DNA of 64,000 nt from Chiloscyllium plagiosum (taxonomy: Eukaryota). The translations under genes and the position numbers were made by a program. A model generated the notes under the pieces. The model ran no database searches and was not told where the DNA came from. It worked only from the letters and a program-made list of their open reading frames with translations. The stretch is from the NCBI RefSeq assembly GCF_004010195.1, contig NC_057719.1, forward strand, positions 33,317,520 through 33,381,519, written 5' to 3'. Positions 1,760 through 55,530 of this stretch are shown here, piece after piece. The stretch's first letter is position 1. Every line of letters begins with the position of its first letter.

Positions 1760-1795
1760 ATTCCTGAAGAAGGGCCTGTGCCCGAAACGTCGAAT
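1760..1795 (+). ncRNA. Minimal type I hammerhead ribozyme motif (best copy)
   Basis: AUUC-CUGAAGA-A-GGGC(CUGU)GCCC-GAAA-CGUC-GAAU: helix I AUUC/GAAU, helix II GGGC/GCCC, palindromic ACGU helix III; predicted cut after C1791. Confidence 0.8.
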
Positions 1796-1891
1796 CTCCT
1801 GTTCCCTGGATGCTGCCTGACCTGCTGTGCTGTTCCAGCAATAAAGTTTCAACTTTGATCTCCAGCATCTGCAGACCTCACTTTCTCCTCC
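1760..1891 (+). mobile_element. Young PLE terminal-repeat insertion nested in an older copy
   Basis: 8-bp TSD ttggtaaa (1752-1759, 1892-1899); ends in the family 3' terminus ctcactttctcctc; CpGs retained. Confidence 0.85.
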
Positions 1892-4129
1892 TTGGTAAAG
1901 TGTGGCATTGGAAAAAGCACAGCAGGTCAGACAACATCTGAAGAGCAAGAGAGTCAATGTTTCAGTCATAGCCATGCAGTCCTGATGAAGAGTTATGCCT
2001 GGAATATTGATTCACTTGCTCCCTAGATGCTGCCTGGCCTGCTGCACTTTTTCCAGCACTACGCTACTATACCCACCTCCTACCAAGGCTCATATTCTAT
2101 CACTCTTACTATCGCCTGCAACAACTTTTCTCACTTGCTTTGATCACCATTAATCTGTGCATCCCTTCCCCTGTACAGACCTCCACATATAGCCCCTCCT
2201 CCTTCCCTGGCCCATACTAATCTCACATTCTGTGTACCCATCATAGCCTCCGCTACTCACTTATTCTGAATACCTTACCATTCCACTCGCAACAGCAGGA
2301 AAAACTCTGCTACTTACTTTCAGTTCAGTCAGTCCCTCCTTTTCAGTACAGGTGGATGCAACCCACAATAAATCAGGAAAGGTCCAGACAGAAAGAGGCG
2401 AACCAGACATTCAACTCCTCAGTCCTGGTGTGGAGAGATTCTAGGCCCTCTCAGGATAGAATTGGGAAAACTTCCACAGGGATGTCAATATACCCATGTC
2501 AAACCATCTGAGTAATCACATTCTTCATTCTACAACTCTCACATTAACTTCATTGTCAATGTCAGTCACTGCATACTGCAACTAACCACATTCTCTTTTC
2601 TCTTGCAAGTAACGCCAACATCTCCACCAGTTCCATGGTAAAATAGCCTGCTCTCCCAGACACCAACTACTCAAGCCCCGGGGAGCACCCAGCACACCCA
2701 GAAGTGCACACTCTGATGCGTCACTCGGAAGATTAGCTTTCGAATGGTAGGGAGCATAAACTCATGAATTTGTCAGCTCCACTGCTGGTCCAGGAGGAGA
2801 TACCTCAGGCTGGTCAGAACACAGAGGGCTGCTGGAGTGCAGGCACTGTTCAGTGCCACGCAAAAGAGGATCCTGTGGTGTCAGTCATCAGGGACTTTGT
2901 CCAAATGCACAGAAAAGCAGACATATATGTGGGACACTAAGGCCCTCACTGTCCAGAAGCTGCAGCAGTACAGAATGATGTGGCCATCTCTCTGCCTCTA
3001 TGGCCAGATTGGTGTCTGCCATGGAGAGCTAGGCCCAGATTCCTCAGGGGCTGCTGGAGAGGGGCGACAACTACAACTCATCGCCCACTCCCAGCCCATT
3101 GGTCCTCAGGACTGAAGTTATGGCAAACAGGGGCATGGGGAACCTGGTGTGCACTCCAGTTGTCCTTTCCTCGCTCAGGACAGGTCAGGAAAATCCACTG
3201 GTGGTCAGGCCTTTCAGCTCCATGCTGCCTGCCACCCTCCAACTCTTGGGGTTGAAGCCAAGGCGGGTTAACTTGCCTCTGGCTCGCAGCCCTTCAGTAT
3301 GTCTTGAAAGATTCCACACCATCTGCCCTGCTTGCCTGACCAAACCTTCTTGGTAACCAGGCTCCACTGTAGAGCAGGCTCCCTCTCCCCCAGCTAAGGA
3401 ACCAGGGCTGACACTAAGATACAATGGGAGTGAAAGGAAAAGGAAAACATACTGAGGGCTCATTAGTGGCACACATTACATTGAACTTCACAATGAAGTT
3501 CATTTGTATAAGGTCCATTGTCTTGCCAGTACATTTGTTTCCTTGAGTCTCCGTATAGCCAAGAATATATCAGTGCTAGCATTATACCTCATGTCATGTC
3601 CATACAGGATATCAATGGGTCAATGTCTGTGTTGAGAGTCTGCTGAGCATCTGGAAGCAAGAGGAACAAGTCTTTCTGACACCATTTCCCTTTATCCTAT
3701 GACATCTCTATTCTTGCCCTGGCTTCTGAATTCAAAAGAGTTTGTTTGAATGCGGTGGTCAGAGATATCTGGGGCAGAGAGGTGTGCAGCACACAGGGAA
3801 CATTAATATCCTCAGGCACTGGGGACTCTTCTGATGAATCAAATGAATTGTGGAAGATAATTCTCACCCAACATTGGAGTTACCTTTGTTTTGTTTAGTG
3901 TACTAGACAAGACTAACACAGACTCAATGGTAGGCAACCATGATTATAAAGTTATTCATACCTCCCTAAAAGGGAAGGATGCAGAAAGGACAATATAACA
4001 AGATGATCAGATGGTACATTATACTGCAGTTTCAACATTTTACTTGCTTGAAAGTAACAATTTGTGAAACTTTATTATTGCACAATAATGTGAATTGAAG
4101 TAGAATGGGAAAGCATGGTGCAATGTAGA

Positions 4130-4313
4130 GCAGTCCAAAGATGTGCAGGTCAGGTGAATTGGCCACGCTAAATTGCCCATAGTGTTGGGTGCATTAGTCA
4201 GCGGGAAATGAGTCTGGGTGTGTTACTCTTCGGAGGGTCGGTGTGGACTCATTGGGCCAAAGAGCCTGTTTCCACACTGTAGGGAATCTAATCTAATCTA
4301 ATCTAATCTAATC
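4130..4313 (+). mobile_element. 5'-truncated HE1-type SINE
   Basis: Matches the 3' half of 47257-47606; (ATCTA)n tail. Confidence 0.85.
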
Positions 4314-6595
4314 TTGAAAGATAACTCCTGCATTTGCAGCAATCAAACAGCAGTCAGGCTGTAGCATGCGTTTCAATTCAAACTAATCACGATATTGGTC
4401 CTTTGAAAGACAATGAATATTTTGTACATTAACCCCAACTTCAAGTGCTGATTTTTTAAAAATTATCGTTGGTAATTTTTTTAATTGATCAGAGCTGGCA
4501 TTGAAAAGTTAAATAAGGTAAACCTTTAGATTTGTTTTTTTTTGTTTTGAGATTAGTAAAAATTAGCAAATGATATTAGACATTGTTCTGTAAATAGGGC
4601 ATAAAAGTAGTTTTCAAAATTGTGAAACATTCATGGTGGTTAACCATATGTGAAGAAAGTAAATGATATGTGGAAGCCAAAAAGTGACAATTGACTCAAG
4701 ATCAAATCTCAACAAACATATCAGCATTTGCATTAATCGTTCACAGGAGTAGATCTATTCTTCGAATATAGATTGTTTTTGCCCACACTTCAGTGATAAA
4801 ACTGTCATTAAAACAATCAAATTAAAGCCATTAAAAGTTCAATAAATGTAATCCAAGTCCCATTCAAGCTCTCGTTACAAGATTGAAGATTATTTATTCT
4901 ATTGAAGAGCTCCAAAAAAAAGTACACAGGGGAATATTCTGTACTTATTACATTTTTCAGAGGAAGTCCATCAATGAACATATTTTATTTCTGATGTTTG
5001 TGGTTAGAATTAATGAAAATATAGCTTAGGAATAAAATGAATGGTTCACTTTCATTGTGGTTTCTTCAGAATAAAATTTTTCACGTACATGAAGCTCAAC
5101 CACATTTTTGTTCTCAATGTGTGTATTTTCTTCATATGAAGCAGTTGTCTTCACTTGCTTCATTAGCCCTAAGGAATAGATTTGTTTTGTGCTCCTTGTA
5201 CTTAAGCTTCACTTAGTTGAGAGAGGAAGATAGATGAACTGTTCATTGGCTGGTGCCAGAGCTCTTCTCTCATCATTCATTAGGATGGATGCAAGAACAA
5301 AGAGACAGTGATCTGTTTGCCATCTTTCTTGATTGCATTGGGGGGATTTATGTACACACTCAGAAGTGGAATGCCAAAATGCCCTTGACAATGTAATTTA
5401 AGAGGTTGCAGATTGTCCTTTCTGTTCATGAAAATTCCAAAAACTGATAACTCGTTATGCAAGGATGTTAGGACACAACTATTATGTTTTAATTGTAGTT
5501 TAATAATCTGAAACAGAGTTAATCTTTCTCATTCTATTGGAGAATGTGTTCTAACACTGGACATTCCAGTAAAAGTGATCATGCAGGTGCTGGAAATTTG
5601 AAATATAGAGAGAAAATTTCATAAATATATAACACAGTCAAAATTTGGAAAGAGAAACACAACACTTAATTTCACATCAAATTTCCATTACTCCTGGGAG
5701 ATTGAAAAAAGGTTTCTGTCTTGCAGATACAATTCAACTTGCTGTATATTTTTAGCATCAGCTCCAGTGATGAATAGGAGGTCTTTACAATGAAATCTGA
5801 AAAAAGCTTCTCAATTGGAAATGCTAGAGGAAGTGTCATTACGCTACTGATGAAAGATTGGGAAAAATAAGATAATCAAAAGAGGAGGATATATCTACAA
5901 CATATGTAACTCATACATTCCTATGGAGTTCCATCACCTTCCTTACTTCCATAAACTAATTTATCAATTTTTGAAAATGAATTAATAAAGTTACAATAGT
6001 TTTAGTAATGACATCCCATAAAGCTATCCAAAAGATTTTGTAAATCGAAAATTATTATTTTTTATTTCTTATTTTTTGGAACTTGACCCATTGGTTTTCT
6101 GGAATGAGACCACAATTGATTTCATTAATTTTTATGAACTTCCAGTCATAGAGTCACAGAGATGTACAGCATGGAAACAGACCCTTCGGTCCAACTCGTC
6201 CATGTCAACCAGATATCCCAACCCAATCTAGTCCCATTTGCCAGCCCTTGGCCCATATCCCTCTAAACACTTCATATTCATATAGCCATCCAAGTGCCTT
6301 TTAAATGCTGTAATTGTACCAGCCTGCACCACTTCCTCTGGCAGCTCATTCCATACACGTACCACCCTCTGCGTCCCTTTTATATCTTTCCCCTTTCACC
6401 CTAAACCTGTGCCCCCTAATTCTGGACTCCTCTACCCCAGGGAAAAGACCTTCTCTATTTAACCTATCCATGCCCCTCATGATTTTATAAACCTCTATAA
6501 AGTCACCCCTCAGCCTCCCACACTCCAGGGAGAACAGCCCCAGCCTATTCAGCCTATCCCTGTAGCTCAAATCCTCCAACCCTGGCAACATCTTG

Positions 6596-7689
6596 ACACC
6601 AAGAACAGCTACGTAAGTATCCTACTCATTGACTACAGTTCAGTCTTCAACACTATTATCCCCTCGAGACTGATTACTAAACTTAGTGATCTCAGACTAA
6701 GCCCCATTATCTGCAACTGGGTCCATAGTTTCCTGACTCACAGGCCACAATCAGTGAAGATTGAGGACAATATTTCATCCTCACTAACACTCAACACTGG
6801 AGTCCCCAGGAGTGTGTACTCAGCCCTCTACTGTACTTATTATATGCCCATGACTGAGTCGCCAAATATCAGATTAATGCCATTTACAAGTTCGCTGATG
6901 ACACCAACATAGTCAGTCAAATCTCAGATGGCAATGAAGCCGACTACAGAGAGGATGTGGAAGACCCGGGAAAATGGTGCAGTGAGAACAACCTCGCTCT
7001 CAATGCCAGCAAAACCGGGATGTTACTCATCCTACACATTAACAGCACAGAGGTGGAACAAGTGGAGAGTGTCACGCTCCTGGGAATGGTCATCCACAAC
7101 AAGCTTTCTTGGACTCTTCACTGGTTACAAAGGCCCAATAACATCTCTTCTTCCTCAGGCAGCTGAGGAAATTTGGTATAACGGCAAATACCTTGCCAAC
7201 CTTTATAGGTGCGCCATTGAGAGCATTCTGTCTGGATGTATCACTACCTGGTATGGCAACTGTACCATTCAAGATCGGAGATGGTTACAGAGAGTGGTGA
7301 ACTCAGCCTGGACAATCACCAAGGCCAACCTCTCATCTATAGAATCCATCTGCCAGGTCCACTGTCAAATAAAGTCACCAGCATTCTCAAAGATCCATCT
7401 CACCCTGGCAATATTTTTCTACAAACCTCCACCATCGGGGAGAATATACAGAAGCCTGAACACATGCACCAGCCGGTTTCGCAACTGTTTCTACCCTACT
7501 GTTGTTGGAATACTGAAGGGGCTCACAAACTCTTAACATTCGCCAGTACTTGTATTTTTGTTTTTGCAGCTGTTTACCTATTATTTATTTTCTATGCTAC
7601 TTAACTCTGTGATCTGTCTTGTATTGCTCACAAGTCAAAACTTTTCACTGTGCCTCAGTATACATGACAATAAATTTAATTCAATTCAA
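6596..7689 (+). mobile_element. 5'-truncated Rex1/Babar-type LINE
   Basis: KFADD motif; C-terminal LYRCAIESILSGCITTWYGNC...LQRVV; AATAAA then (AATTC)n tail; splits the CR1. Confidence 0.85.
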
Positions 7690-8950
7690 TCCTTGCAAAT
7701 CTTTTCTGAACCCTTTCAAGTTTCACACCATCCTTCTGATAGGAAGGAGACTAAGATTGCAAGATTCCAAAAGTAGCCTAACCAATGTCCCGTACCAGAA
7801 CATGATCTTCCAACTCCTGTACTCAATGCTCTGATCAAAAAAGAAAAGCATACCAAACACCTTCTTCACTGTCCTCTATACCTGTAACTCCATTTTCAAG
7901 GAACTATGAATCTGCACTTCAAGGTCTTTTTGTTCAGCAACCCTCCCCAGGACCTTACCATTAAGAGTATAAGTTCTGCTCTGATTTGCTTTCCCAAAAT
8001 GCAGCACCTCGCATTTATCTAAATTAAATTCCATCTGCCACTCCTCAGACCATTGGCCCATCTGATCAAGATCCTGTAGGACTCTGAGGTAATCTCCTTC
8101 GTTGTCCACTACACCTCCAATTTTGGTGTCATCTGCAAACTTACTGACTATATCTCTTATGATTACATTCAATTCATTTATATAAATGACGAAACATAGT
8201 TTTGATCCTTGTGACACTCCACTGGTCACAGGCCTCCAGTCTGAAAAGCAACCCTGCTCCACCACCCTCTGTCTTCTACCTTTGAGCCAGTTATGTACCT
8301 AAATGGCTACTTCTCCCTGTATTCCATGAAGTCTAACCTTGCTAACTATCTCATGAGGAACCTTGTCAAACGCCTTACTGAGTCCATATAGATCATGTCC
8401 ACCTCTCTGCCCTCATCAATCCTCTTAGTTATTTCTGCAAAAATCTCAATCAAGTTCGTGAGACATGATTTCCCATGCACAAAGCCATGTTGACTATCCC
8501 TAATGAGTCCTTGCTTTTTCAAATACATGTAAATCCTATCCCTGAGAATTCCCTCCAATAACTTGTCCACCACCAATGTCAGGCTCACTGGTCTATAGTT
8601 CCTGGGCTTGTCCTTACCACCTTTCTTAAACAGTGGCACGACGTTAACCAACCTCCAGTCTTCTGGCCCCTCACCTGTGATTATTGATGATACAAATATC
8701 TCAGCAAGGGGCCCAGCAATCACTTCCCTAGCATCCCCCGAAGTTCTAGGGTACACCTGATCAGGTCCTGGGGATTTATCCACTATTATACTTTCAAGAC
8801 ATCCAGCATCCCCTCTTCTGTAATATGAACATATTTCAAGATGTCACCATCTATTTCTCCACATTCCAAATGTTCCATGTCCTTCTCCGCAGTAACCATT
8901 GATCTACTGTGGCTCCACACATAGGGTGCCTTGCTGATCCTTGAGGGGCC

Positions 8951-9069
8951 AAAGAGTGTGGTGCTGGAAAAGCACAGCTAGGCAGGCAGTATCCGAGGAG
9001 CAGCAGAGTCGATATTTTGAGCAGAAGGAATTTTGATGTCCAGCATCTGCAGTCCTCACTTTACCCTAC
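8951..9069 (+). mobile_element. Short fold-back PLE-derived insertion (family 1)
   Basis: 17-bp TSD ctgatc(c/t)ttgaggggcc at 8934-8950 and 9070-9086; family terminus cagcatctgcagtcctcacttt. Confidence 0.85.
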
Positions 9070-9429
9070 CTGATCTTTGAGGGGCCCTATTCTCTCCTTC
9101 GTTGCCCTTTTGTCCTTAATATATTTTTAAAAATCCTTTGGATTCTCCTTAACCCTATTTGCCAAAGCTATCGCATGTCCCCTTTTTGGCCTCCTGATTT
9201 CCCTCAAGTATACTCCTACTGTCTTTATACTCTTCTAATCATTCACTAGATCTCTCCTGTCTATACCTGACATATGCTTCCTTCTTTTTCTTAACCAAAA
9301 CCTCAATTTCTCTGGTCACCCGACATTCTCTACACCTACCAGCCTTTCCTTTCACTCAAATAGGAATATACTGTCCCTAGACTCTCATTATCTCATTTTT
9401 GGAGGCTTCTTATTTTCCAGCCGTCTCTT

Positions 9430-10754
9430 CATCATTAAGTGCTTTGAGAGACTCATGTTGAGGCATATTTAGACCTTGCCAACCCCCTTACTGGACATCC
9501 TGCAGTTTGCATGTCATCCAAATCGCTCAACAGGTGATGCCATTTCCACCACCCTCCATCTGGCCCTCATCCATCTGGAGAAGGACACCTACATCAGACT
9601 ACTGTGCATCAACTTCAGTTCTGCATTTAACACTATCATTCTTCAGCACCTGAGTGGAAAGCTGAGTCTGCTGGGCTTGAATGACCTCCCTTTGTAACTG
9701 GATCCTAGATTTCCTGACTGGGATACCTAAGTCAGCCCGAATTGGAAACAGCATCTCCAACACCATCACACTGAGCACAGGGGCTTCCCAGGGCTGTGTG
9801 TTCAGTACACTGCTGTTCACCCTGCTGACACACAACTGTGTAGTGATGCACAGGTCCAATCATATCATCACATTCGCTGATGATACAACTGTCGTGGGTC
9901 TCATCAGCACGAGCGACGTGTCAGCATACAAAGAGGAGGTGCAGCAGCTAACAGACTGGTGCAAAGCCAACAACCTTTCTCTGAACATGGACAAAATGAA
10001 AGAGATGGTTGTTGCCTTCAGGAAGGCACAGAGCGACCACTCTCCATAGAGATCGTGAAGAGCACCAAATTTCTTGGCCTACACCTGGCGGAGAATCTCA
10101 CCTGACCTCTCAGCACCAGATCCATAGCCAAGAAAGTCAAGCAGTGTCTCTACTTTCTGTGTAGGCTGAGGAAAGCCCACCTCCCAACCTTCATCATCAC
10201 CACGTTCTACAGAGGGTACATTGAGAATATCCTGAGCTGCTGCATCACTGCCTCGATCGGGAATTGCACTGTCTCGGATTGTAAGACCCTACAACGGATA
10301 GTGAGGACAGCTGAGAGGATCATCGGGGTCTCTCTTCCCTCCATTACAGACATTTAGTCCACATCCAAAAGGATAAGAGCATTGTGGAAGTCCCTCACTC
10401 AAACTCCTATCCTTCCTGCCATCTGGCAGAAGATACCGGAGCTTTCGGTCTCTCATGGCCAGACTGTGCAACAATTTCTTCCCGTAAGCCATCAGGCTCC
10501 TTTCCACTGTATGATCAGACTCTTTCCCATCTGAAATACTTTGCACAACTTTGAATTGCTGCTAGAAAGATGTGTATTATTTATCATTCTTCTGTTACAC
10601 TGTAACTTGTGTATTTTGCACTATTTGTGCACTTTATACCATGTAAGATTGTGTAGTTTATGCTGTCCATGTAGCACCCTCGGTACTGGAGGAATGCTAT
10701 CTTGTTTTTACTGTTATATATGGTAGAAATGACAAATAAAAGCTACTCTACTCT
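9430..10754 (+). mobile_element. 5'-truncated Rex1/Babar-type LINE (second family)
   Basis: [36 protein letters not shown] motifs; AATAAA then (CTACT)n tail; splits the CR1. Confidence 0.85.
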
Positions 10755-18899: not shown

Positions 18900-19108
18900 G
18901 AGGAGAAAGTGAGGACTGCGGATGCTGGAGACCAGAGTTGAAAAGTGTGGTGCTGGAAAAACACAGCAGGCCAGGCAGCATCCGAGGAGCAGGAGAATCG
19001 ACATTTCAGGCATTAGCCCTGAACTCCTGAAGAAGGGCTTATGCCCGAAACGTCAATTCTCCTGCTCCTCGGATGTTGCTTGGCCTACTGTGTTTTTCCA
19101 GCACCACA
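18900..19108 (-). mobile_element. Short fold-back PLE-derived insertion (family 1)
   Basis: 15-bp perfect TSD ctttagcaatggaag (18885-18899, 19109-19123); about 80-bp inverted arms. Confidence 0.9.
19023..19058 (+). ncRNA. Minimal hammerhead motif
   Basis: CUGAAGA-A-GGGC(UUAU)GCCC-GAAA-CGUC; helix I degenerate. Confidence 0.7.
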
Positions 19109-19849
19109 CTTTAGCAATGGAAGTCTGCCGTTCTTATCTGATCTAGCCTATGTATTACTCTGGACTCACAACAAGGTGGTTGACTCCTAACTGCCTGCTG
19201 GGTAATTAAGGATGGATAATAAATGCTGATGTCGCCAATGGTGCCCACATCCCACAACAAATATTTTTAAAAAGTGAATTCTTGCAGTTGGCTGATCTGG
19301 TAGAACATTTTTTGTACAAACTCAGATATAGGTGGATTCCTCTCAAGGCCCAGGAATATATTTCTTGTAGGATGGGAAATTATTTCACTTTTCAGGTGAA
19401 ATAGAGCAATGAAATTTCAAGGGAGATTGAGACTTTTTGACGCAGGCCTAGCTGAGTTTGGAATTGTTTTTCTTGTTTTCTGACTGGGTATAGAAAGGAA
19501 AGTAAAAGAGAAGTCAAAATGGCCTTTGATGTATCTTATTAAAAAAAAACTGTGTTTTGTAGCAGTTAACTGTGGGGCCATTGGTATTATCTCAGACATA
19601 AAGAGTTTTGATAGCTCCCCCTTTCATTTAGAATTGGCTGGTGTTGACGTTTTGTCTGCCATTAATTTGTATTGGTTTGACTGGAATATGTATACAATAC
19701 CAACAGTATGGCATGCCAGGAGAACAATACAAGTTTTTGTCCCATTCTTACTACTGATCAGATGGAATTTAAAATAAAGGAGAAAGGTATTCTTATGACA
19801 GAAATAAGGAAAAAAAAAACACACACAAGTGAGAACCAAGATGAATGCA

Positions 19850-25027: not shown

Positions 25028-25223
25028 AAATGTGTTGCTGGAAAAGTGCAGCAGGTCAGGCAGCATCTAGGGAACAGGAGAATCGACGTTTCGGGCATTA
25101 GCCCTTCTTCAGGAAGAAGGCCCCTCTCCTGTTCCCTAGATGCTGCCTGACCTGCTGCGCTTTTCCAGCAACACATTTCCATCTCTGATCTCCAGCATCT
25201 GCAGACCTCACTTTCTCCTCAAA
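25028..25223 (+). mobile_element. Short fold-back PLE-derived insertion (family 1)
   Basis: 22-bp perfect TSD ggttatcttttagctgccattc (25006-25027, 25224-25245); inverted arms. Confidence 0.9.
25081..25115 (-). ncRNA. Minimal hammerhead motif
   Basis: Reverse complement UUC-CUGAAGA-A-GGGC(UAAU)GCCC-GAAA-CGUC-GAUU. Confidence 0.75.
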
Positions 25224-26758: not shown

Positions 26759-27490
26759 TCTCTGAGGCGCACCTAGAGGTTGCATGTGAAAAAGAACATT
26801 TTATTCACATTGGTCTGCAGATAGAGGCCAGCAACTGTAAGCTCACAGACATGGCTGGTGGATCCAAAGCAGATCAACAGTAGGGGTGTGGCCACATGAC
26901 CTTGGATAAAATATGGATTGAGGCAACCTTATGGGGGCAAGAAGGTTGAGTGACACACCATTTTCAATCTCAAACCTCTCACTAGACACCTACCGTTATC
27001 TCCAGCACAACACTCATCAGACCAAATCATTCTCACCTTCATCCCCTCCCCCACTCACCCATTGTACACTATGCTACTTTCTCCCCACCCCCACCCTCCT
27101 CAAGCTTATCTCTCCACGCTTCAGGCTCACTGCCTTTATTCCTGATGAAGGGCTTTTGCCCGAAACATCGATTTCGAAGCTCCTTGGATGCTGCCTGAAC
27201 TGCTGTGCTCTTCCAGCACCAATAATCCCAAATGCTTCTCTTTGTCAAGGCATCGACTTACATTTCCCATCCAAATCGTCAACACAGCTATCCACTTCCT
27301 TATTACTTTCCCCACAGTTCCTTTCACAAATGTACAAGCATGCTTTCAAACTGTTCTGTTTCTCACACTGATAACACTCTATTCTCTCTCCTTGTAGGAG
27401 AGGTCAGAAGCAGAACTCAAGGGAGAGGCAGAGAATCAAAAGTGCTCCTCCTAGTATAGCCACACTGAGCACTTTAAAATCAGATGCATC
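26759..27490 (+). pseudogene. Second Harbinger-type Myb/SANT-like gene relic
   Basis: FSEAHLEV / KNILFTLVCR*RPATVSSQTWL...QINSRGVAT*PW, then after a ccttgtag acceptor (27397) QKQNSRERQRIKSAPPSIATLS; frameshifted. Confidence 0.45.
27030..27225 (+). mobile_element. PLE terminal-repeat fragment with hammerhead motif at 27138-27173
   Basis: attc-ctgatga-a-gggc(tttt)gccc-gaaa-catc followed by the family-1 tail. Confidence 0.75.
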
Positions 27491-30756: not shown

Positions 30757-31420
30757 TTATGAGAATATAGGAAGAGGAGTAGGTCATTCTGCGCTTCAAG
30801 CCACCATTTTAGATCATGGTTGATCATCTTCTCAATGCTATTTTCACACACTCTTCCCATTGGCCTTAATATCATTTATCTCAAGAAACCTATCAATCTT
30901 TATTTTGAACCGGCTCAATGATTGACCCTCCACAGCCTTATGAGGTACTGAAATTCCAAAGGTTCACCATCCACCAAGTGAAGAGGTTTCTTCTCATCCC
31001 CACCTTAAATTACTTAACTCTTATCCTGAGATCATGTCCTATCTATATCAGAGTTGAAAAGTGTGGTGCTGGAAAAGTGCAGCAGGCCAGGCAGCATCCG
31101 AGGAGCCTGGCCTGCTGCGCTTTTCCAGCACCACACTTTTCAACTCTGGTCTCCAGCATCTGCAGTCCTCACTTTCTCCTATCTATATCAGCCCTGTCTT
31201 GCCCTATAAGAATTTTGTTTGCTTCAATGAGATCACCTTTCAATCTTCAAGACCCAAAAAAAGCACACGGCTTTCTTAACCTCCCTTTACACGGGAATCT
31301 TGTCACGAGGATTAATCGAGTGAACCTCTACTGAACTCTCACTATGGCAAGTATATTTCTCCTTTACAAAAGGGAATAAGACTCTCTAATATCTCATATG
31401 AGGTCTTACCAAGGCTTCAT
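30757..31420 (-). mobile_element. Old CR1 3' fragment
   Basis: Resembles the 3' ends at 22870 and 38220; interrupted at 31052. Confidence 0.55.
31052..31176 (+). mobile_element. Short fold-back PLE-derived insertion lacking the hammerhead
   Basis: 15-bp TSD tcctatctatatcag (31037-31051, 31177-31191); about 43-bp inverted arms. Confidence 0.85.
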
Positions 31421-37286: not shown

Positions 37287-37834
37287 ACTTGTCAAGCCCT
37301 GGGCCCTGGAGGGGGTCTCCTGAGTTAATACAGGTATCTATACAAGGCTCCCGTTCCTTTGTTTGGGAGCATTGCGCTGAGCATAGCTGGTCTGAATTTT
37401 GAGGGTTTTTTTATACTTTTCTTTCTTTTTTTTGGTGTTGCTTTGCATAGTGTTAGGGTTTGTTTTGTATTACAGGGTAGGTTAGTAGTTGGTAGACAGT
37501 AGTTGTATTGTAATTTGTGGGGTTTTTTAGTTTTTATTATTCTGATACTTGTTATTGATTGTATTTTTCAATAATTTTATATGTTTGTAAAGTTCAAAAA
37601 AATTTGCAAATAAATATATTTACAAAAAAAAGTTATCCAATATCCGAACAATCAGTTACCAAACAATCAATTATCCAAACAAAATACTCACCGCCCATCT
37701 CATTCGGATAATCAAGGTTGTTCTGCACAAGCTTTTGGAGCACTAGCTACCTGACGATGGATCAGCACTCCAAAAGCTTGTACTTTCAAGTAAACCTGTT
37801 GGACTATAACCTGGTGTTGTGTGATTCTTGTCAA

Positions 37835-38045
37835 AACGTATGGCGCTAGAAAAGCACAGCAGGTCGGCAGCATCTGAGGAACATATGGGAGCCAATGTTT
37901 CGTGCATAAGTGTTTCATCAGGAATGAAGATGAAGAGCTTATGCTCGAAACGTTGACTTTCCTGCCCCTCGGATGCTGGCTGTGCTTTTCCAGCACCACA
38001 CATTTTTACTATGATCACCAGCATCTGCAGTCTTCACTGTCTCCT
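37835..38045 (+). mobile_element. Short fold-back PLE-derived element (family 1)
   Basis: Inverted arms around catcaggaat/gatgaagagcttatgctcgaaacgtt; helix II variant GAGC/GCUC. Confidence 0.75.
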
Positions 38046-38384: not shown

Positions 38385-38688
38385 ATCCTCCACCAGTGTT
38401 TGAGATGAGGCGCTCTTCTCCAACCGTCGTGTTGCTATGGTCTGGCAATGGAGGAGTCCAAGGACCTGCATGTCCTTGGTGGAGTGGGAGGGGGAGTTCA
38501 ACTCCCCCAAGTCCCTCCTCCCTACCTTTTATCTTAGCCTGCTGGACACACTTGCCTCATTCCTGAAAAAGGGCCTATGCCCGAAACGTCGATTCTCCTG
38601 TTCCTTGGATGCTGCCTGACCTGCTGCGCTTTTCCAGCAACACATTTTCAGCTCTGATCTCCAGCATCTGCAGTCCTCACTTTCTCCT
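38385..38688. mobile_element. PLE fragment: inverted endonuclease C-terminal piece plus terminal repeat
   Basis: 38400-38500 is the reverse complement of the PLE C-terminus seen near 29790-29860; hammerhead with G8A at 38559-38594; family terminus. Confidence 0.75.
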
Positions 38689-41418: not shown

Positions 41419-41471
41419 CTTTTGTCAGGAAATCTGATTGCTACGGTCAGTCAAAGGAATAAGTGACTGAG

Positions 41472-41661
41472 CTGAAAATGTGTTGCTGGAAAAGCGCAGC
41501 AGGTCAGGCAGCATCCAAGGAACAGGAGAATCGACGTTTCGGGCATAAGTGCCCGAAACGTCGATTCTCCTGTTCCTTGGATGCTGCCTGACCTGCTGCG
41601 CTTTTCCAGCAACACATTTTCAGCTCTGATCTCCAGCATCTGCAGTCCTCACTTTCTCCTC
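41472..41661 (+). mobile_element. Very young fold-back PLE-derived insertion (family 1)
   Basis: 15-bp TSD gaataagtgactgag (41457-41471, 41662-41676); perfect 77-bp palindrome 41469-41545 / 41550-41626. Confidence 0.93.
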
Positions 41662-41782: not shown

Positions 41783-44125
41783 TAGAATGATACAGTACTG
41801 AAGAGGCCCATTGGCCTATCGAGTCTGCATTGATAACAGCTGCTCAATCTACATGAGTCCCACTTTTCAGCACTTGGCCCATAGTATTGAACATTGTGAC
41901 ATTTCAATGCTCATTGAAGTACTTTGTAAAGGTTGTGAGGTTTCCCACTTCTACTACTCTACCAGGCAGTGCATTCTGGGTGAAAAAACATTTTCCTCAA
42001 ATCTCTTTTAAACCTCTAAGCCTTTCACATTAAAATTATGCCCCCTGTTATGGGCTGTTCAACTACGAGGATCAACAGCTCTTTATCTACCATGCCCATG
42101 CCTGTCATAATCTTGTACATCTCAGTCAGGTCCCCTCTCAGCCTTCCCTGCTTAAAAGGAAACAACCAAGCTTATTCAGTCTCTCTTCATAGCTAAACTG
42201 TTCCATCCTAAAGCAACATTTATCAGAGTTAAATTCCATCTTGCACTAATCTGTCCAACTGACCAATCCATCGGGATCCTCTTGTGATCTAAGACCTTCT
42301 TTCTTACTGTCAACTACCCAGCCTTGTGTCATCCGCAAACGTACATATCATTGCCCCCACCCCTACATTTTCTTTTATATTATTTACATTCATATCACAA
42401 ACAATAAAGGGCCCAGTATTGATCCCTGTGTTATGCCACATACATTGGCCTCCAGTCACACAAACAGCCTTCTCCCATCACCCTCTGACTCCTAGCACTA
42501 AGTCAGTTTTGGATCCAACTTGCGAAGTTATCCTGGCTCCAAAATGCACTTACCTTCTTTATCAGTCTCGCATGTGGGATCTTGTCAAAGACTTTTCTGA
42601 AATCCATATAAACTATATCAGCTGCACTACTCTCATCTACACACCTGATCACCTCCTTGAAAGATTCAAGCAAATTTCTTAAGCACAACCTCCCTCTGAA
42701 AAGTCATGCGGATTTTCCCTGATCAAACTTTTCTTCCTCAAATGGAGATGAATTCTCTCCTTCAGAATTTTCTGCAGTACATTCCCTCTCACTGGTGTAA
42801 GGCTCACTGGTCTGTCATTCCCTGGTTTATCTCTACTACCCTTCAAGAAACTTGGAATCGTATTTGCATCCTGCAGTCTTCTGGCACCTCCCCTGTGTCC
42901 AGTGAGGTATTAAAGATTTGTGTCACAGCCCCTGTAATTTCCTCCCTCATCTCCCAAGCCTAGGTTGCTCGTATGGACCTAGTGTTTGTCCTTTCTTAAG
43001 CTCACCAAAATCTCCAGTACCTCCTCTTTCCCGATGTCAAACTGCCCAAGAATCTGACTGTTCCTTTTCCTGATCTTTGTACCTACATCCTCTTTCTCCT
43101 GAGTGAAGTATTCATTTTACAATCTATCAATGCCTCCAGTTCCACCCACAAATTGTACTCTTGGTACCCAATGGGTCCTTCACTGGTCAACTTCTTCCCC
43201 TTAATATACAAACAGAATATCTAGAGATTCTTCCTAATCTTACCCACCAATGTTTTTTCAAATGCCCCATTTTTGCACAAGATTTCCCCTTGCACTTTCT
43301 GATGATTTGCTCCCTTTGTATCGGTTGAAAACCTCTCTTTTCCTTCTAATTGAATCATGAATATTCCTCGACATCAAGCATTGCTCCTACATTTCACTTT
43401 AAAGGAACATGTTGGGTCTGTACTTTCACCAGTTTCATTTTGAATGCCCTCCACTGTTTCTGCTGCAGATTTTCCCAGAAATAGCTGTTCCCAATTTAGT
43501 TTGGCCTGATAATAAACAAACAAACTGTAGATGCTGAAAATCAGAAACAAAAGCAGAAATTACTGGGAAAGCACAGCAGGTCTGGCAGCATCTGGGGAGG
43601 AAAATCAGAGTTAACATTTTGGGTCCAGTGAGCCCTCAGATTTCTCTCTACAGATGCTGCCCGACCCATTGAGTTTTTCCAACAATTTCTGTTTTTGTTT
43701 CTACTTTGGCCAGATCCTGCCTTATGTTATTAAAATCTTGATAGTGATAGTTGTGGTCATTATCATGAAAACACTCTCCCATTGCCATCTGGACTATCAA
43801 TCTGACTTTGTTCCCCAATATCAGGTCTTGCAATGCACCGTCCCTTGTGAAACTTTCTAAATGTTGATATGTAAAACTCTCCTGTCTCCTCGAAACCCTT
43901 TGCATCGACTAACCCAATCAGTGTTGGGGTGGTTAAGATCCACAAATATAATTACTTTATTGTTATACACAGCTCAGTGAATTTTCTACATATCTGCTCC
44001 TCTTTTGCCCACTGACTTAAGGCCTATAATACATTTCCAGCAGTGTGACCGCCACCTTTATATTGCAAAGCACCACACACAAAGCTTCATTTGAAGATGG
44101 TTTTCCAAGATGGTATCCCTCCTTT
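41783..44125 (-). mobile_element. Old, internally deleted CR1 LINE
   Basis: YMDFRKVFDKIPH, EVPEDCR, TRDGALQDLILGN motifs. Confidence 0.8.
43507..43703 (-). mobile_element. Fold-back PLE-derived element, third family
   Basis: Arms agaaacaaaagcagaaatt...gcagcatctg / cagatgctgc...aatttctgtttttgtttct; short repeat tttggcc on both flanks; decayed hammerhead at the centre. Confidence 0.65.
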
Positions 44126-48685: not shown

Positions 48686-48687
48686 AC

Positions 48688-48705: not shown

Positions 48706-49000
48706 ATTCTTCCATCGCCGGGGGGGGGGGGGAGGTGTGGCTGGCTCTGGACACTGGGAAGACACGTCCCGTTCCCAATTGAGGAGCGGTCTCGTTTCTC
48801 AGTTTGGTCCGCTCCCTTGGGCGACTGGTACGAATCCCACAAGAGAGACATCTGAATCAGACAGTGAAATTAGGTTCATAGGAAATACGGCAAAAAGGGG
48901 CCAGGCAACTCTGTGTACAGACCAAGGTAAAAAAATTGACTTTTAAGTACTGCCTTGGTGGCCGGGATTGAGTTTTAAGGGATTAACTAAGGAACTCAAT

Positions 49001-49348
49001 ATGGGCTGTGCCATGGGTAAGGAAAAAGCCTCCGGGAAAACAAAAGAAGAAAAAGGCAATGGAAATGGAGGCAGGGTCCCTTACAACATACCTCAAGAAA
49101 GTCCGTTGGGCATGATATTGTGGAATTTGAAAAATAATAATTGTACTAGGGAAAAAAATAGGAAAACGATGATTAAATATTGTTGCTCTGTATGGACTAA
49201 GGAATCCATTCTTCATCCCTCCGTCTTCTGGCCAAAGTACGGGTCGGACAAAGACTGGGTTTGTAAATATTTGAATTTATATCTCAATGAAAAACAGCCT
49301 TACAGTCAGGAGGAATCAGATTATTCTTCAAGTTGGAAGGGCTACTGA
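49001..49348 (+). pseudogene. gag: ERV gag matrix region
   Basis: MG start (myristoylation-type), SPLGMIL, KYCCSVW, WPKYGS. Confidence 0.75.
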
Positions 49349-50249
49349 GGGTACACTTTGTAACTAAATCATGGCCAGACATCCAGAAACATATTCAAAA
49401 GATAGAGGACTGAAGCGAGGAGCACCCAGAGGTGTTGTTGTGGGAAGCTCAAAACGTATCTGTGAGATATGGTGTGTATGTGTGTGTGAGAGAGAGAGAG
49501 AGAGAAAAGAGCTGGTAGAAAGTTTAACCCTTTGTGATTCGGTTTGAATGCACATTTGTTTGTTGGTGATTAAATGTTTGTGCTTTGATCCCTGGAGCTT
49601 GAGATCCAGGACTGTTTTGAATCTGATTTTTATTATGGAAATTTAACATGATTTCTTTTAAGGTTAAGGATTCTATAGTGATTATGAAATAAAATGATAA
49701 CTCCTGTTCTTTTTACAGGTCATGACTGCCTTACTATCAGTTTCTAACTAATCTCTTTTATCCTTACATAAAAGCGATTCACGGAGGACAGTCGAAGTTT
49801 CAGTTCAACATTAGGCCGTAGTAAAAAAAATCCTATGGTTAATATCTGTGACTTTGGAGTCGGCCATTGTTCATGCATTAGAAGTTTTTATTTAACTTGA
49901 ATAGACAAATCCTTTTAAGGCAGCTCCATTTATTTCACGACCGAAAGCATTGTAACTAAGCAATGATTGGTCAGGACTACTTAAGAAAACTAATTTTGGA
50001 TTTAAACTAAGGGACTAAAACTAGATAATTATAGTGGATTTCAAAGTTGGGAACTGTATGTATTTTACATTTTAAATATTGAATACTGAATAAATGAATT
50101 TATAATATATAAATATGTATATACAAGTTAGGAAGAGGCTTTAAAGTTAGACAAGCATAAATTGATGAATTGGTATTTGAAGTTATAGGGAGCAAGAGGT
50201 ATTGCAATATTTCTTAAAAAAAATTCTCAAGGTCTAAATAAAACATTGG

Positions 50250-50728
50250 GTGGTGAAGAATGGCCATTAGGTGGCCCTAAAGCTGTTCAGTTAAATCGGG
50301 TCAGCAATTGATCTGGCAACATAACATGAGAAGGAGAAACAAAAGGCAAAAATAATGATAGCCCACGGTTGATGAGGAAATAAAGAAACGGACAAAACTA
50401 AAAAGGAGAAAGAAACCAGAATGGTCGGGGAGGAGATGTTATGGAGTCTGGTGGACAGGAACAAGGATCGAAGTGGAAATCCCCACAGGCGGGATGTTAT
50501 TACTGTGAGAGGACGGGTCACTTTAAGAGAGAGTGTTCAGATTTGAAAAAGGAAGTAAAGACAGTACCGTTTATGAACCTTGATGAAAAATAGGGGTGTC
50601 AGGGGTTCCTGCCCCCGGGGACCCACCAGGAACCCATGATAAATTTAAAGGTGGGACTTTATAAAGAGGACATAGTTTCCTTAGTCGATACGGGGGCAGC
50701 AAGGTCATCCTTAAAATTTAAGCCCAAG
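50250..50728 (+). pseudogene. ERV gag nucleocapsid and protease N-terminus joined by in-frame TAG
   Basis: CYYCERTGHFKREC zinc knuckle, TAG at 50591-50593, then GCQG...LVDTGAARS in the same frame. Confidence 0.9.
50591..50655 (+). promoter_or_regulatory. gag-pro stop-codon readthrough signal (pseudoknot)
   Basis: UAG, spacer GGGUGUCAG, stem 1 GGGUUCCUG/CAGGAACCC, stem 2 CCCAC/GUGGG. Confidence 0.8.
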
Positions 50729-51485
50729 GCAGCGGGAACAAAAGAGTTAATTGGATTATGGCGACGGTTTTGTGATGAGAGGCACGAAGAACCAGTTTTG
50801 TGCTCATGACAAAATACTGCCACCAAATTGGAATTGAATTAACTGCAAATGGCGCTATGAAATCTGTTGAGGTTCTTAAAAATGATTGTGCTCAAGCAAA
50901 ACAATTACAGAAACAGAATGAGAAGCCACAAGTGACTGGTAAACAAACAGAACTGCACAATTATAGTTTTAAAACTGTTTTGGTCATTTGTTGAGTTTCC
51001 ACCCTGAATTACAGATAATGATTTTTATATTTATATAATATATAATTAATAATTAATATTTATAATAAATTGATTGTGCTAGCCTGAATCTATATTAATT
51101 GGCAGGATCCCTTCACACATTCTCAGTGACCTGTCATATTGATTCATGGTTAATTTAAAACATGACTGCATTAATTCATTGTTAATTAATGAATGGAAAG
51201 CTACATTACTGGCTGATGAGGTAACGAAAGAAGCAGCCCTGAATCCACAGGAAGCAGTGGCTTATTCCCTAATACCTACTGTCCCAGGTCCTCGGAAAGG
51301 TCCTATCTCTGGCCACTGCCAAATCCCAGAAACTAAAGATTTGTTCTTAAAGAAGTATATACTGAGCTTGTCCTCCTCTTTGTCTTTCCTCAGGAAACAG
51401 GGTTTATTGGCACAGACTCCGCCCCGCTGTTTATCCGATTCGACCGGGAGACTGGGTCTTAGTAAAATCATGGACAGAGACTAAA

Positions 51486-51671
51486 TTGCAGCCGGACTGG
51501 GAAGGGCCGTACCAGGCTCTTTTGACTACTAAAACAGCAATAAGGACGGCGGAGAAAGGCTGGACTCATTACACTCAGATCAAAGGGCCAGTGGAATCTC
51601 CAGTTGAGGAAGAAGTCTGGACAGCCGAATCAACGCAAGAACCGCTGAAACTCAGACTAAAGAGACTTTGA
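51486..51671 (+). pseudogene. ERV integrase C-terminus
   Basis: LQPDWEGPYQALLTT...WTHYTQIK (GPY/F motif). Confidence 0.85.
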
Positions 51672-52104
51672 GTAACCAATTATACAGTGGCGACCCGAGC
51701 GCGGGATTATTTCTATGGGATTGTATATTAAGTCTTTTGGTGCTTCAACACGATTTTTAGAATGCTGGGGATGCTCAGAGTTATGATACAAGCGCTCTTA
51801 ATATTGGGATTTTGTCAAACATTATTTTCATATGTGTTATTAACAGTTCCTGAATCTGATAATCCACAAGTAATAGACCTGATGCATGCAGCTTAGTAAA
51901 TTGTGGGGATGTAGATAATCAGAGACAGTACAGCAGCTCAGAGATACATCTTAAGTCCTTTGGGGATGGTACTTGGTACAATGGTCTTGTCACAATACAC
52001 TGGGCCCCCTTCCAATCAGCTCTCGATTGTCCCGATAAAGAGCGTAACCCAATATACCTAACGATAAAGAAAACCACATGGCATGAAGCAATTCTGGGGG
52101 GGGG

Positions 52105-52688
52105 TGGTACCTGATGAGTTCAAGCTCGCAACCAGATTGCAGCAGGCTTTGAGTCAGCTCTCTTCTGGTGGGTAACAGTTAATAAAAATGTAGATTGGAT
52201 ACATTACATTTTCTGTAATCAACAGTGATTTATAAATTATACAAGAGATGCGGTTAAAGGAATATCAGAACAGCTTGATGCGACAAGTAGGATGGCATGG
52301 GAAAACAGAATGGCCCTTGATATGATTTTCGCGGTAAAAGGGTGTGTGTGTGATGTTAGGAGGAAGCTGTTGTACCTTTATTCCTAATAACACTGCGCCT
52401 GATGGTTCAATTACTCGGGCCTTAAGGGGATTGACTACCTTAGCAGAGGAACTTGCTGAGAATTCAGGAGTAGATACATCTCTCACGGGATGGCGTGAAT
52501 CATGGTTTGGAAAATGGAAGGGGTTGGTGGTTTCCATCCTTACTTCCCTGATAGTAGTAGCCAGGGTATTGGTAGCCATTGGTTGTTGTATCATACCCTG
52601 TATACGAGGGCTCATCCAAAGACTGATTGAGACAGCCTTAATGAAACAGATGCCCCTAAAAGGGAATCAGGCAGAGGAACTTTATTGA
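52105..52688 (+). pseudogene. env: ERV env transmembrane subunit remnant
   Basis: ISD-like ENRMALDMIFA, CX6CC (CVMLGGSCC), hydrophobic anchor; stop and frameshifts. Confidence 0.88.
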
Positions 52689-52819
52689 TTAAATAATGAG
52701 GGGATGAGGGAGACCAAGATGGATGAAATCTCTGGAATGATACTTGCGAATTTTGGGGGCGATGCTTAAAAGAAAAATGCAGAAGGTAACAAATGGTAAT
52801 TAAAGAAAAAGGGGGAAAT

Positions 52820-53521
52820 TGTGGGATATAGGTAAAGTAGTGTTACTTCTGCAATCATAATTACTTATGCAAGGTAAATGCACTCACACCAGTGTATAAT
52901 TGTTTCAACCAAGAGCTGAGTCAACAAGAATGAAAATATATAATTGTTTTTGTATTAGCTAAAATGTGCATGCAAGAATGAAATGTGCCTGCAAACAATG
53001 GTAGATGTTAGAGACAAATAGATAAGGTGCTGTGAGGGGAGGGGGTTAAGCTAGATACGCCTGTACAAACAGTAGTTATAAGCATCTGTTTCCCACTTCT
53101 GCAAAAACAAGAACAAATCACAATCAAGGGGTCATGAGGTCATACAAATGAGGGAAACAGATGGTAGTGAAGGAGGATATACCTAACAATGGACCACAGC
53201 AGGATGTGGTCAAATGGCCTTGTGAGGCCAGATTTAAGCATTTTGTCACAGACAAGGCTGGATAAGGCAAGAGATAAACAAGAGTAATGGGCGCCGGTCT
53301 TAAAGAGGTGGGAGATGTAAACAGGGGAGGAGCAATGGGATGAAAGAATAGGAACCAAATTACATAAATGTTGTGTACTAGTTGAATTCAGTGTGTGTGT
53401 ATCCCTGCCTTGTGCACAGTGGATACCACGCCCCTCTTGCAAGGGTAAAATAAATGACACTACTGATTCAGATCTTGTCTCAGAATGAAATTATTGAAGT
53501 GAGTGAGCTTTGTTTCTCACA
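52820..53521 (+). repeat. ERV 3' LTR
   Basis: Preceded by the PPT, followed by TSD gccat. Confidence 0.93.
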
Positions 53522-54000
53522 GCCATGTTTTCCACCAAACCTGCCTTCCAAAGTCATTCAAACAAGTCTGATAAATGCTGTAAATGTTCCTTCCATGAGT
53601 GACTAAAAAAATCACCAGGTCTTCAATGTAAACAACACAATTGGGTAACCTGGCAATGACCATATTAGTCAGTCTCTGAAATGTGGATGGACTGCTTTTC
53701 ATACCAAATGGCATGATGTTGAACTGACAGAGGTACTTGCCAATAGCCTATGACCAAATCCAACTTAGAAATGTAAATTGTTTGTCCCACTTTTTCGACA
53801 CAGTCCTCCAACCTGTGGAATTGGATGTACATCAGTCTTTGTAAGAGCATTGACTTCGCAATATTCCACATATAGCCATTGGGTACCATGACTATCGGTG
53901 AGCTCCAGTCACTGTAACTCACTTTGATTATGCAATCTTGGAGCATGCACTTTATCTCCTTCTGGATCTGTGCCATCTTTAGAGGGTTGTGCCTGTAAGG
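53522..54000 (-). pseudogene. Gypsy RT N-terminal and catalytic region
   Basis: SDWSSPIVMV, SKLDLVIGYWQV, MPFGMKSSPSTFQR, YIED (mutated YxDD). Confidence 0.88.
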
Positions 54001-54269
54001 ATGTTGTTTAATCGAACAGCATCTCCTATATCTACATCGTGCATAATTAGGTTAATACTTCCCACTTTATTTCCGCATATCTCCCCATGTGATAGTAATA
54101 ACTCATTCAGGTCATTTTGATTTTCTTGTGGAAGGTATCTCAGTAATTTATCCCAATTTTTGACAACTTCCTCATTGTCTAACTTGAATTGCGGAATGTC
54201 CAATTTAGAATGCTCCAACCTTGGTTCTTCCTTCAGTGCTGTAATCATTAACACTTTCTCCTCTTGCTT

Positions 54270-55530
54270 TCCTTCCTTATCAAAACATCTTTTGAGCTTA
54301 TTCACATGACACACTCAGAGACTTCCTCCTGTCTGGAGTCCTTATCAAGTAGTTCACCTCCCTCAATTTCCTCTCAATTTGATAAGGTCCACTAAACCTT
54401 GCTTTTAAAAGTTCACCTGTTACAGGAAGTAACACCAAAACCTTCTCTCCAATTGCAAAACTGTGGATATGTGATTTCTTATCTGCTTTCTGTTTCATTG
54501 TATGCTGTGATACTTTTAAATGCTGTCTAGCCAACTCTCCAGCTCTATTTAATCATTCTCTAAAATTTGACACATATTCCAAATGGGTGGTCTCTGAATT
54601 CTGACTTATTAATTTCTCCTTAATCAATTTTAACGGTCCTCTTACTTCATGCCCAAAAATTAATTCAAATGGACTGAATTTGGTCGATTCATTCAGTGCA
54701 TCTCTGATCGCAAAAAGTACAAAGGGAGCTCCCTTATCCCAATCATTTGGATAATGCTGACCATAAGCTCTCAACATGGTCTTTAGTGTTTAATGCCATC
54801 TCTCTAGCACTCCCTGCGATTCTGGATGGGATGCAGTGGTTTTGAATTGCTTTATTCCCTAGTTATCCATAACCTCCTTCAATAGCTTGGATGTGAAGTT
54901 TAATCCTTGATCTGACTGGATTTCTATTGGTAGTCCATATCTAGTAAAAAAAATTAAATAATTCTTCTACTACCCTTTTAACTGCGATGTTGCGTAATGG
55001 GATTGCCTCTGGAAATCTAGTCGACACATCCATTATTGTTAATAAATACTTATTCTCACTTTTTGTTTGAGGTAGGGGACTTCCGCAATCAGGCGAAAGG
55101 GAGGACTGCAAATGCTGGAGATCAGAGTCTAGATTAGAGTGGTGCTGGAAAAGCACAATAGGTCAAGCAGTATCCGAGGAGCAGGAAAATCGATGTTTCG
55201 GGCATTCCTGATGAAGGGCTTTTGCCCGAAATGTCGATTTTCATACTCCTCGGATGCTGCCTGACCTGCTGTGCTTTTCCAGCACCACTCCAATCTAGAC
55301 TTACGCAATCAATCAAGACTCTTGTGAAAGGTTCCTCAAATGCTGAAATAGGTATTAAAGGTACAGGTTTTAATTCTGCCTGTGGCTTTCCAATTAGCTG
55401 ACATGTATAACACGTTTGGCAAGATTCAACTACATCCTTGTGTAGTCCAGGCCAGTAAAAATGTCTTTGTATTTTAGCCTGTGTTTTCCTCACCCCTAAA
55501 TGACCTCCAAGTGGTAGCTCATTTGTCACT
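54270..55530 (-). pseudogene. Gypsy integrase
   Basis: GGHLG...CQTCYTCQ zinc finger, LTIMDVSTRFPEAIPL, FSPFELIFG, ARFSGPY. Confidence 0.9.
55092..55297 (-). mobile_element. Short fold-back PLE-derived insertion in the integrase
   Basis: 14-bp TSD gactt(c/a)cgcaatca (55078-55091, 55298-55311); hammerhead on + at 55204-55239. Confidence 0.88.

Follow-up and report, generated by a model that had tools for sequence, protein, structure and literature searches.

A stretch of 64,000 nucleotides (nt) from the shark Chiloscyllium plagiosum (contig NC_057719.1, positions 33,317,520 to 33,381,519; hereafter the window) contains, by self-comparison, one family of repeats of 80–200 bp, many of them arranged as inverted pairs, and their breakpoints fall again and again in or at the edge of a 36-nt hammerhead ribozyme. 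Why do the copies end there? A sequence-only reading of the window had proposed that cleavage by the ribozyme, or its hairpin, sets where reverse transcriptase (RT) stops, and that the cDNA then snaps back on itself. We found that the pattern is real and strong, that it occurs in a known class of element, the Penelope-like elements (PLEs), and that the position of the ribozyme marks it. The cause, we think, is rather likely to be a different one: the 5' ends concentrate on the first ribozyme base since a capped RNA starts there and RT runs off its end, and the inverted pairs arise by twin priming.

The element and the placement of its 5' ends

Judged from their sequence, the repeats are pseudo-long terminal repeat (pLTR) ends of an EN+ PLE, here called family A, and the inserts are the terminal 95–130 bases of this retrotransposon. 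We number its bases from the A of the motif ATTC (+1, with 0 for the preceding base); the ribozyme spans +1 to +36 and its predicted cut lies after +32. Longer family A copies run upstream through a pyrimidine-rich 3' untranslated region into what translates as a GIY-YIG-like C-terminus, and rare copies continue downstream into an open reading frame (ORF) starting near +169. Four homologues of the C-terminus carry PF26215, one of them also PF00078 and one PF01541, while a Pfam scan of the C-terminal fragment itself gave no match. The closest proteins are named from bamboo shark, and more distant ones have RT or GIY-YIG Pfam domains. The ORF of an EN+ PLE, RT with a C-terminal GIY-YIG, is thus seen indirectly, through the domains of homologues and from copies short of full length. 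One translated family A fragment contains the linker CHRRNCKTC; a CX2-5CxxC linker before the endonuclease is one of the marks of the Neptune clade, next to RT phylogeny (PMC8557442; here and below, papers are cited from the accessible parts of their text).

The architecture is likewise that of the class. EN+ PLEs are described with an inverted 5'-truncated copy, partial tandems and an optional tail of 30–40 bp (Craig et al., 2021, PMC8557442). Here, 3' ends are bimodal, near +95 (short) or near +130 (long); partial tandems and inverted 5' copies are both present (50 tandems among 70 loci with the start of the ORF, and 61 head-to-head pairs in the blind sample described below); and target-site duplications flank pairs as well as solo copies. 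Family A was represented by seven references built from long copies. The genome holds four further PLE families, B, C, D and E, with different minimal hammerheads, and B, C and D also occur in the window. The minimal type I hammerhead motif (CUGANGA, helix II, GAAAC, GUC) is found in the pLTR of all families, although the hammerhead family was absent among 20 weak Rfam matches. Minimal type I hammerheads with a palindromic helix III, and pairs on opposite strands, have been noted in metazoan PLEs (Cervera and De la Pena, 2014, PMC4209133), and the architecture here is the same, including the palindromic helix III. In family E the core reads UUGACAA, with U3/A8 replacing C3/G8, behind a perfect TATAAATA; this covariant matches one reported for Schistosoma PLEs (PMC4209133). 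We also considered a non-LTR retrozyme, a class of tandem non-coding units with a hammerhead in each, on which a preprint exists, and rejected it: the copies come from the pLTR of an element that codes for protein, and the blind sample held 96 solo, 91 inverted and 6 tandem arms.

Ends were counted in a blind sample of 160 stretches of 10 kb, taken at round coordinates on 28 contigs (1,544,685 non-N bases). It held 345 family A-like arms, of which 310 reach +60 and 219 pass a filter against other families (3' end at +84 or beyond, identity at least 84%, 5' end no further than +70); 26 of these, next to gaps or edges, were set aside, so that 193 remained. The filter takes out false peaks at +43 and +50, which belong to families D and E with their different ribozyme and not to family A. 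The 5' ends of 107 of the 193 arms (56%) lie within +1 to +36, against 30 expected, and this ribozyme-wide excess amounts to one narrow peak: 71 ends fall at -2 to +4 against 3.4 expected, 21-fold over background (P about 1e-66). The claim that breakpoints are non-uniform and tied to the position of the ribozyme is therefore upheld.

The peak takes 71 of the 117 arms at risk, or 71 of 135 when set-aside arms that pass are included. It appears in inverted arms (32/44) and in solos, which we took alone (39/68) because an inverted insertion contributes two arms that depend on each other; in young (33/52) and old copies (38/65); and in subfamily groups A1 (28/49), A2 (18/39) and A3 (25/29). Simulated uniform truncations, once realigned, gave no peak (18 called and 22 true, of 386), and family D reproduces the peak at +1 (23 of 37 arms at risk). 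The junctions of solos are real, since target duplications flank 20 of 96 solos but 2 of 300 controls. Decay of palindromes after insertion, one of two outcomes that the sequence-only reading had named as fatal to its own proposal, is not the cause either: solos have the same peak, and loss at the centre of pairs is unrelated to age (rho 0.16, P = 0.36, n = 37). More generally, a family with over 100,000 copies (111,171 exact genome matches to one pattern) supplies statistics able to separate models of how PLEs move.

Promoter-like motifs and the candidate RNA start

Several motifs suggest that +1 is probably the start of a capped RNA. A TATA-like box lies about 30 nt before the +1 region in five families: TATAAATA at -31 in family E, CATATAAA at -31 in D, TATAAATT at -36 in C, and a degenerate TTTATC or CTTATC near -31 to -33 in A and B. 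The spacer between box and start diverges among families. By the usual motif consensus, the TATA spacing fits in C, D and E and loosely in A and B, and the base at +1 is, in A, B and D, the A of what we take to be an initiator-like YYANWYY. A TATA box and an initiator-like motif have been described in the pLTR of Adineta Pen2a (Arkhipova et al., 2013, PMC3846280), and the promoter of the D. virilis PLE has been published (PMC2377424); in that species the start lies about 120 nt before the ribozyme (PMC2377424, PMC4209133).

Family C separates a promoter from a ribozyme as the cause, because its TATA-like box lies 5 nt further from the ribozyme. We counted by hand the first 100 of 6,822 exact pattern matches, all on one contig, with a pattern whose last letter excluded most long copies. 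Of these, 73 run at least 3 matching bases past helix I and 7 stop at its edge; 18 stop at an A that lies 32 nt past the TATA, and another 14 reach the next base. A sense-strand G precedes that A in 14 of the 18 (P = 9e-6; two of the rows are both arms of one locus), and in 8 of 12 (P = 0.004) after removal of six rows explained by the partner arm. In L1, an untemplated 5' G has been read as a copied cap (PMC4859970, PMC9341517). Among family A copies that start exactly at +1, G precedes 18 of 29 (41% expected, P = 0.018), an excess driven by the tandem set (8/8). The partial tandems also bear on the start site: in 17 of 50 the downstream unit starts at -7 to +3, with ORF sequence (+198 to about +460) in front of it, which is what a run-off of RT at +1 followed by a jump would leave.

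Many of the targeted loci are partial tandems or internally deleted elements whose downstream unit often begins at +1, a possible route by which a pLTR is regenerated. Splicing at +1 was rejected: in D. virilis the end of an intron is the 5' end of helix I (PMC4209133), whereas here no AG precedes +1 and the flanks are heterogeneous. As a separate observation, in family D an ATG about 50 nt past +1 is immediately preceded by a pyrimidine run and CAG, which resemble a 3' splice site (43635–43655 and the family D reference).

A number of results weigh against a start at +1. We had predicted that arms from loci with the start of the ORF never pass +1, and this failed: 8 of 23 do (to -9, -9, -10, -18, -18, -28, -70 and -78), as compared with 37 of 138 blind arms (P = 0.46), so upstream starts or read-in transcripts are needed. 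RNA reads from one run showed no pile of molecule starts or ends; being mostly read-through of genomic copies, they tip the balance in neither direction. The family A TATA is degenerate, with 5–6 of 8 matches and ties elsewhere in 5 of 7 references, and the cap-like G is weak in this family (8 G and 10 A among blind rows, some of them duplicates or explained by the partner). Among the first 100 of the 111,171 family A matches, ends are spread over +1 to -3 and about 70 are long copies. Blind family C has 12 ends at +2, the edge of helix I, partly from a missing subfamily reference; families B and E offer too few arms (11 and 10); and the single contig and the selective pattern behind the family C count have to be set in the same column.

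These results could be accommodated if +1 were an internal stop and not the end of the RNA, either a pause of RT at a bound protein or a ribozyme dimer, or a cut of the cDNA duplex by the endonuclease at ATT. About half of the arms pass +1, those with the start of the ORF as often as the blind ones, the reads lack a start site, and the Anolis endonuclease prefers 5'-ATT-3' near its own ORF–pLTR junction (PMC11167929). We nevertheless regard an internal stop as unlikely. Families D (AGTT) and C (ACAA) peak in the same way without ATT, the stop in family C follows the spacing from the TATA, and the added G is consistent with a cap. In addition, arms with the start of the ORF never extend beyond -78, whereas 18 of the 37 blind arms that pass +1 lie beyond -100.

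Paired arms, proposed twin priming and the role of the ribozyme

The blind sample contains 61 head-to-head pairs, 56 of them at 82% identity or more; the five dropped by identity were three long–short, one short–short and one other. Of the 45 that could be classified by tail, 44 combine one long and one short arm, while solos are long in 49 cases and short in 46 (P = 3e-12). Targeted loci added 35 pairs (25 long–short, 1 long–long, 1 short–short and 8 other). This scoring covers family A, the family C reference being too short at its 3' side to tell the tails apart. The short arm is deeper, reaching at least 5 nt further 5', in 18 of 44 pairs and the long arm in 12 of 44. Target duplications flank 29 of 44 pairs, 20 of the 29 being 15–16 bp, and junctions vary from locus to locus. 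The best explanation of the pairs is very probably that a staggered cut supplied two nicks, each of which primed a cDNA.

We propose the following sequence of events. A TATA-like box near -31 and an initiator-like +1 in the pLTR would start an RNA polymerase II transcript that opens with the 36-nt hammerhead and has its ORF from about +169. RT would then start at two fixed sites, near +95 and +130; the two classes of 3' end are seen, and the role of start site is taken from the Anolis work (PMC11167929). The enzyme, probably a dimer, would nick both target strands about 15–16 bp apart, and each nick would prime one cDNA, one per start site, on uncut RNA. Both cDNAs would reach the cap, sometimes with a C added opposite it. 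Their 3' ends, often trimmed, would be joined through the 1–4 nt of microhomology seen at junctions, giving a head-to-head palindrome. Alternatively, one cDNA might join the target and leave a solo, or RT might jump from +1 into the 5' part of an ORF and leave a partial tandem. One RNA, or sister RNAs, may serve both arms, because young pairs have both arms of the same subfamily, which is compatible with fold-back as well.

More tentatively, and with less than even confidence, we suggest that the main integration product is a target-primed 'strong-stop' cDNA, made by a dimeric enzyme at both nicks up to the cap and then joined, folded or jumped, and that the hammerhead at the cap is a decapping switch for translation or decay and not a step in making the template. 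If true, solos, palindromes, tails and pLTR regeneration would come under one mechanism. Minus-strand strong-stop DNA of LTR elements is likewise a short cDNA that runs from an internal start to the cap before a template jump, but it is primed by tRNA, whereas the product proposed here would be primed by target DNA and integrated as such. In L1 twin priming the two cDNAs cover different parts of the RNA, while here they would overlap almost fully and begin at two fixed internal sites. Common to L1 and to our proposal is that two primers come from one staggered cut; in L1 the result is a 5' inversion, and an untemplated G indicates a full-length capped template (PMC4859970).

Part of this has a precedent in vitro. 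The PLE of Anolis nicks and extends both strands, uses two RT start sites, is predicted to act as a dimer and works without cleavage by the ribozyme (PMC11167929). This element, Poseidon PAc (Frangieh et al., 2024, PMC11167929), shares with ours two start sites that define the tail and processing of both strands, the latter inferred in our case. Its ORF starts inside the ribozyme, unlike that of the shark element, which starts downstream of the tail (about +169), and the accessible text of that study contains no mapping of 5' ends or transcription starts and no difference between strands in start site.

An inverted arm might instead arise from an RNA starting at +1 by self-priming of one strand (fold-back), with the tail left by endonuclease resolution and the asymmetry of the centre by later deletion. 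This has been proposed in print (PMC3846280, PMC8557442), and it agrees with the same-subfamily arms of young pairs, with microhomology at the joins and with a loss of sequence downstream of +5 that is greater in inverted arms (about 0.010 per nt) than in solos (0.004). Twin priming is not helped by the 38 young pairs, among which no clear cross-subfamily chimera was found, as snap-back predicts too. We still consider fold-back improbable. A copy cannot outreach its template in the 5' direction, unless through later deletion, yet the short arm is the deeper one in 18 of 44 pairs and loss at the centre is unrelated to age; short-tail solos are as frequent as long-tail ones; and 802 zero-loop palindromes (GGAATTCC) fit two ends annealing by AT. 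The snap-back of a single cDNA assumed in the sequence-only reading also fits poorly with the pairing of long and short tails.

The other half of that reading, in which hammerhead cleavage or the ribozyme hairpin stops RT, has in its favour the 107 of 193 ends within +1 to +36, besides the excess at +33 and the genome-wide helix II folds and cut-site joins given below, but it is now very unlikely and largely refuted as the main cause. Because RT travels 3' to 5' on the RNA, copies should end at +33 if the RNA is cut, and at +24 or +36, the 3' foot, if a hairpin stalls the enzyme. The peak lies where helix I begins on its 5' side, a point that RT gets to only after copying the entire ribozyme, which speaks against hairpin or cut as the source of the stop at +1. 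The enrichment foreseen at the cut site and at helix II did not materialize, with 8 ends at +31 to +36 (1.5-fold, P = 0.17) and 15 at +12 to +24 (1.4-fold, P = 0.11). That foreseen at helix I is present at its 5' edge, 21-fold at -2 to +4, but family C ends run past the helix. At +33 taken singly, 4 ends were counted where 0.96 would be expected (P = 0.017, uncorrected); two of these are helix I microhomology joins. Only weak folds are predicted for the monomer (-7 to -9 kcal/mol, z -0.8 to -1.9), and no structure directly upstream of +1 is consistent across four references. In vitro, catalytic mutants insert normally (PMC11167929). The single run of RNA reads showed no pile of ends at the predicted cut, and as mostly read-through of genomic copies it counts neither for nor against cleavage.

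Exact counts over the genome point the same way. Joins of an arm ending at +1 to +3 drop with distance, from 802 perfect zero-loop +1/+1 palindromes to, for an arm reaching +3, 328 microhomology joins at +25, 242 at the cut site and 180 at +49, a rough comparison since the patterns differ in length and CpG content. The cut-site joins thus do not stand out from the controls on either side, and exact helix II folds number 134. The helices supply microhomology for some joins, so they keep a minor role; cleavage supplies a small share of the ends at most. Finally, the amplification of a small number of short master elements whose junction was fixed, which the sheer size of family A (111,171 matches) and the ability of any pLTR with its own promoter to make a short RNA might suggest, is extremely doubtful because junctions differ between loci, solos have flanks and target duplications of their own (20/96 against 2/300 controls), and the peak is present in every subfamily group and in families C and D.

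Palindromes, tails and ribozymes of PLEs are thus already in print, and element class and architecture are known; what is new is the proposed mechanism. With EN+ PLEs as described in PMC8557442 the shark element shares RT and GIY-YIG, the pLTR hammerhead, partial tandems, the inverted 5' copy and a tail at one end. There, in the accessible text, the inverted copy is termed 5'-truncated and the tail ascribed to endonuclease resolution, whereas the shark copies have sharply defined 5' ends and, in 44 of 45 pairs, carry the tail on one arm and not the other. Adineta Pen2a has in common with it the TATA and initiator-like motifs, the inverted pLTR with palindromic junction, the one-arm tail and the target duplication; that study, as far as its accessible text goes, does not link the position of the junction to the promoter and reads the palindromes as self-priming on an antisense template (PMC3846280). 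Cleavage and circles are proposed as the role of the ribozyme in PMC4209133, while in the shark nearly all copies retain the part that lies 5' of the cut, and there is no AG acceptor ahead of +1. In open-licence full text, supplements aside, we found no report that maps the 5' ends of PLEs to an RNA start at the base where the ribozyme begins, or that quantifies long/short pairing. Ends at that base that follow promoter spacing, and palindromes that each use both RT start sites once, allow sharp predictions to be made for the purified PLE system that already exists, and offer a clue, open to testing, as to the way in which these poorly understood elements move.

Copies and other features of the window

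Arm ends in the window were set by alignment to the family references. An old family A head-to-head insertion at 1715..2065 has a long-tail antisense arm (1715–1754 and 1897–1970, +128 to +18) and a short-tail sense arm (1977–2065, 0 to +88), and is interrupted by a younger copy at 1760. The latter, a solo of subfamily A1b on the plus strand (1760..1888), runs from +1 to +129 with 100% identity to its reference; its ribozyme occupies 1760–1795, with the predicted cut after 1791, and the 8-nt repeat TTGGTAAA borders it on both sides (1752–1759, 1892–1899).

Most of the other family A copies are inverted pairs. At 8952..9062, an antisense arm (+91 to +16) faces a sense arm of just +92 to +125, with a 17-bp target duplication (one mismatch). 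At 18901..19112 the long arm covers +131 to +12 and the short arm +3 to +90, with a 15-bp target duplication; at 25028..25219 the short arm covers +89 to +2 and the long arm +36 to +130, with a flanking duplication of 22 bp. An old pair at 37830..38045 has a short arm from +95 to -1 and a long arm from +7 to +131. The young pair at 41469..41660 (short arm +96 to +16, long arm +20 to +130, 15-bp target duplication) has a junction at 41546 that was not seen again among the best 40 genome candidates scored. At 55091..55301 the long arm runs from +131 to +19 and the short arm from 0/+1 to +98, with a 14-bp target duplication (one mismatch). Other families contribute a short family C copy with a different ribozyme (37749..37829, plus strand, +3 to +83) and a family D head-to-head pair (43523..43701, +121 to +10 and +37 to +103).

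The alignments agree with the sequence-only reading at every breakpoint it listed in or at the edge of the ribozyme. They also confirm that the copy at 1760 and the right arm at 55204 begin at ATTC, that is at +1, the C at 55203 being common to both arms, and that the sense arm near 25124 begins 3 nt past the predicted cut (+36). The list mixed three families, however, and left out counter-examples in the window. A pair at 31047..31180 (15-bp target duplication) is joined at 31105, downstream of the ribozyme (+42/+56); a longer A2b copy at 27033..27228 (plus strand) extends at least 104 nt upstream of the ribozyme; a plus-strand copy at 38502..38688 (-56 to +130), with the TATA-like TTTATC near -31 and the initiator-like TCATTCC at +1, has an inverted upstream piece beside it at 38403–38471; and family B copies reach -101, -101 and -76.

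One family C arm (row C1:42982595) appears joined to family A at the GTC shared by their cut sites and may be a cross-family chimera. A 2-kb direct duplication (12158–14173 and 14285–16305, 99% identical) flanks an N gap, contains family C endonuclease sequence and may be an assembly artefact. An Rfam match to U6 at 7691–7748 was rejected as sub-threshold and not U6-like on inspection; among the loci retrieved, which cover little DNA, one U6-like end was found, not joined to a PLE. The regions 6463–10049, 21403–22377, 32014–36715, 40019–42941 and 48947–57276 are presumably other, broken retroelements, LINE-like or LTR-like by the resemblance of their translated ORFs. A hairpin at 18439–18577, rich in inverted (TG)n/(CA)n, gave weak, sub-threshold matches to miRNA families, and 44146–44830 holds a 266-nt inverted repeat (98% complementary, 153-nt spacer) that matched none of the PLE end references.

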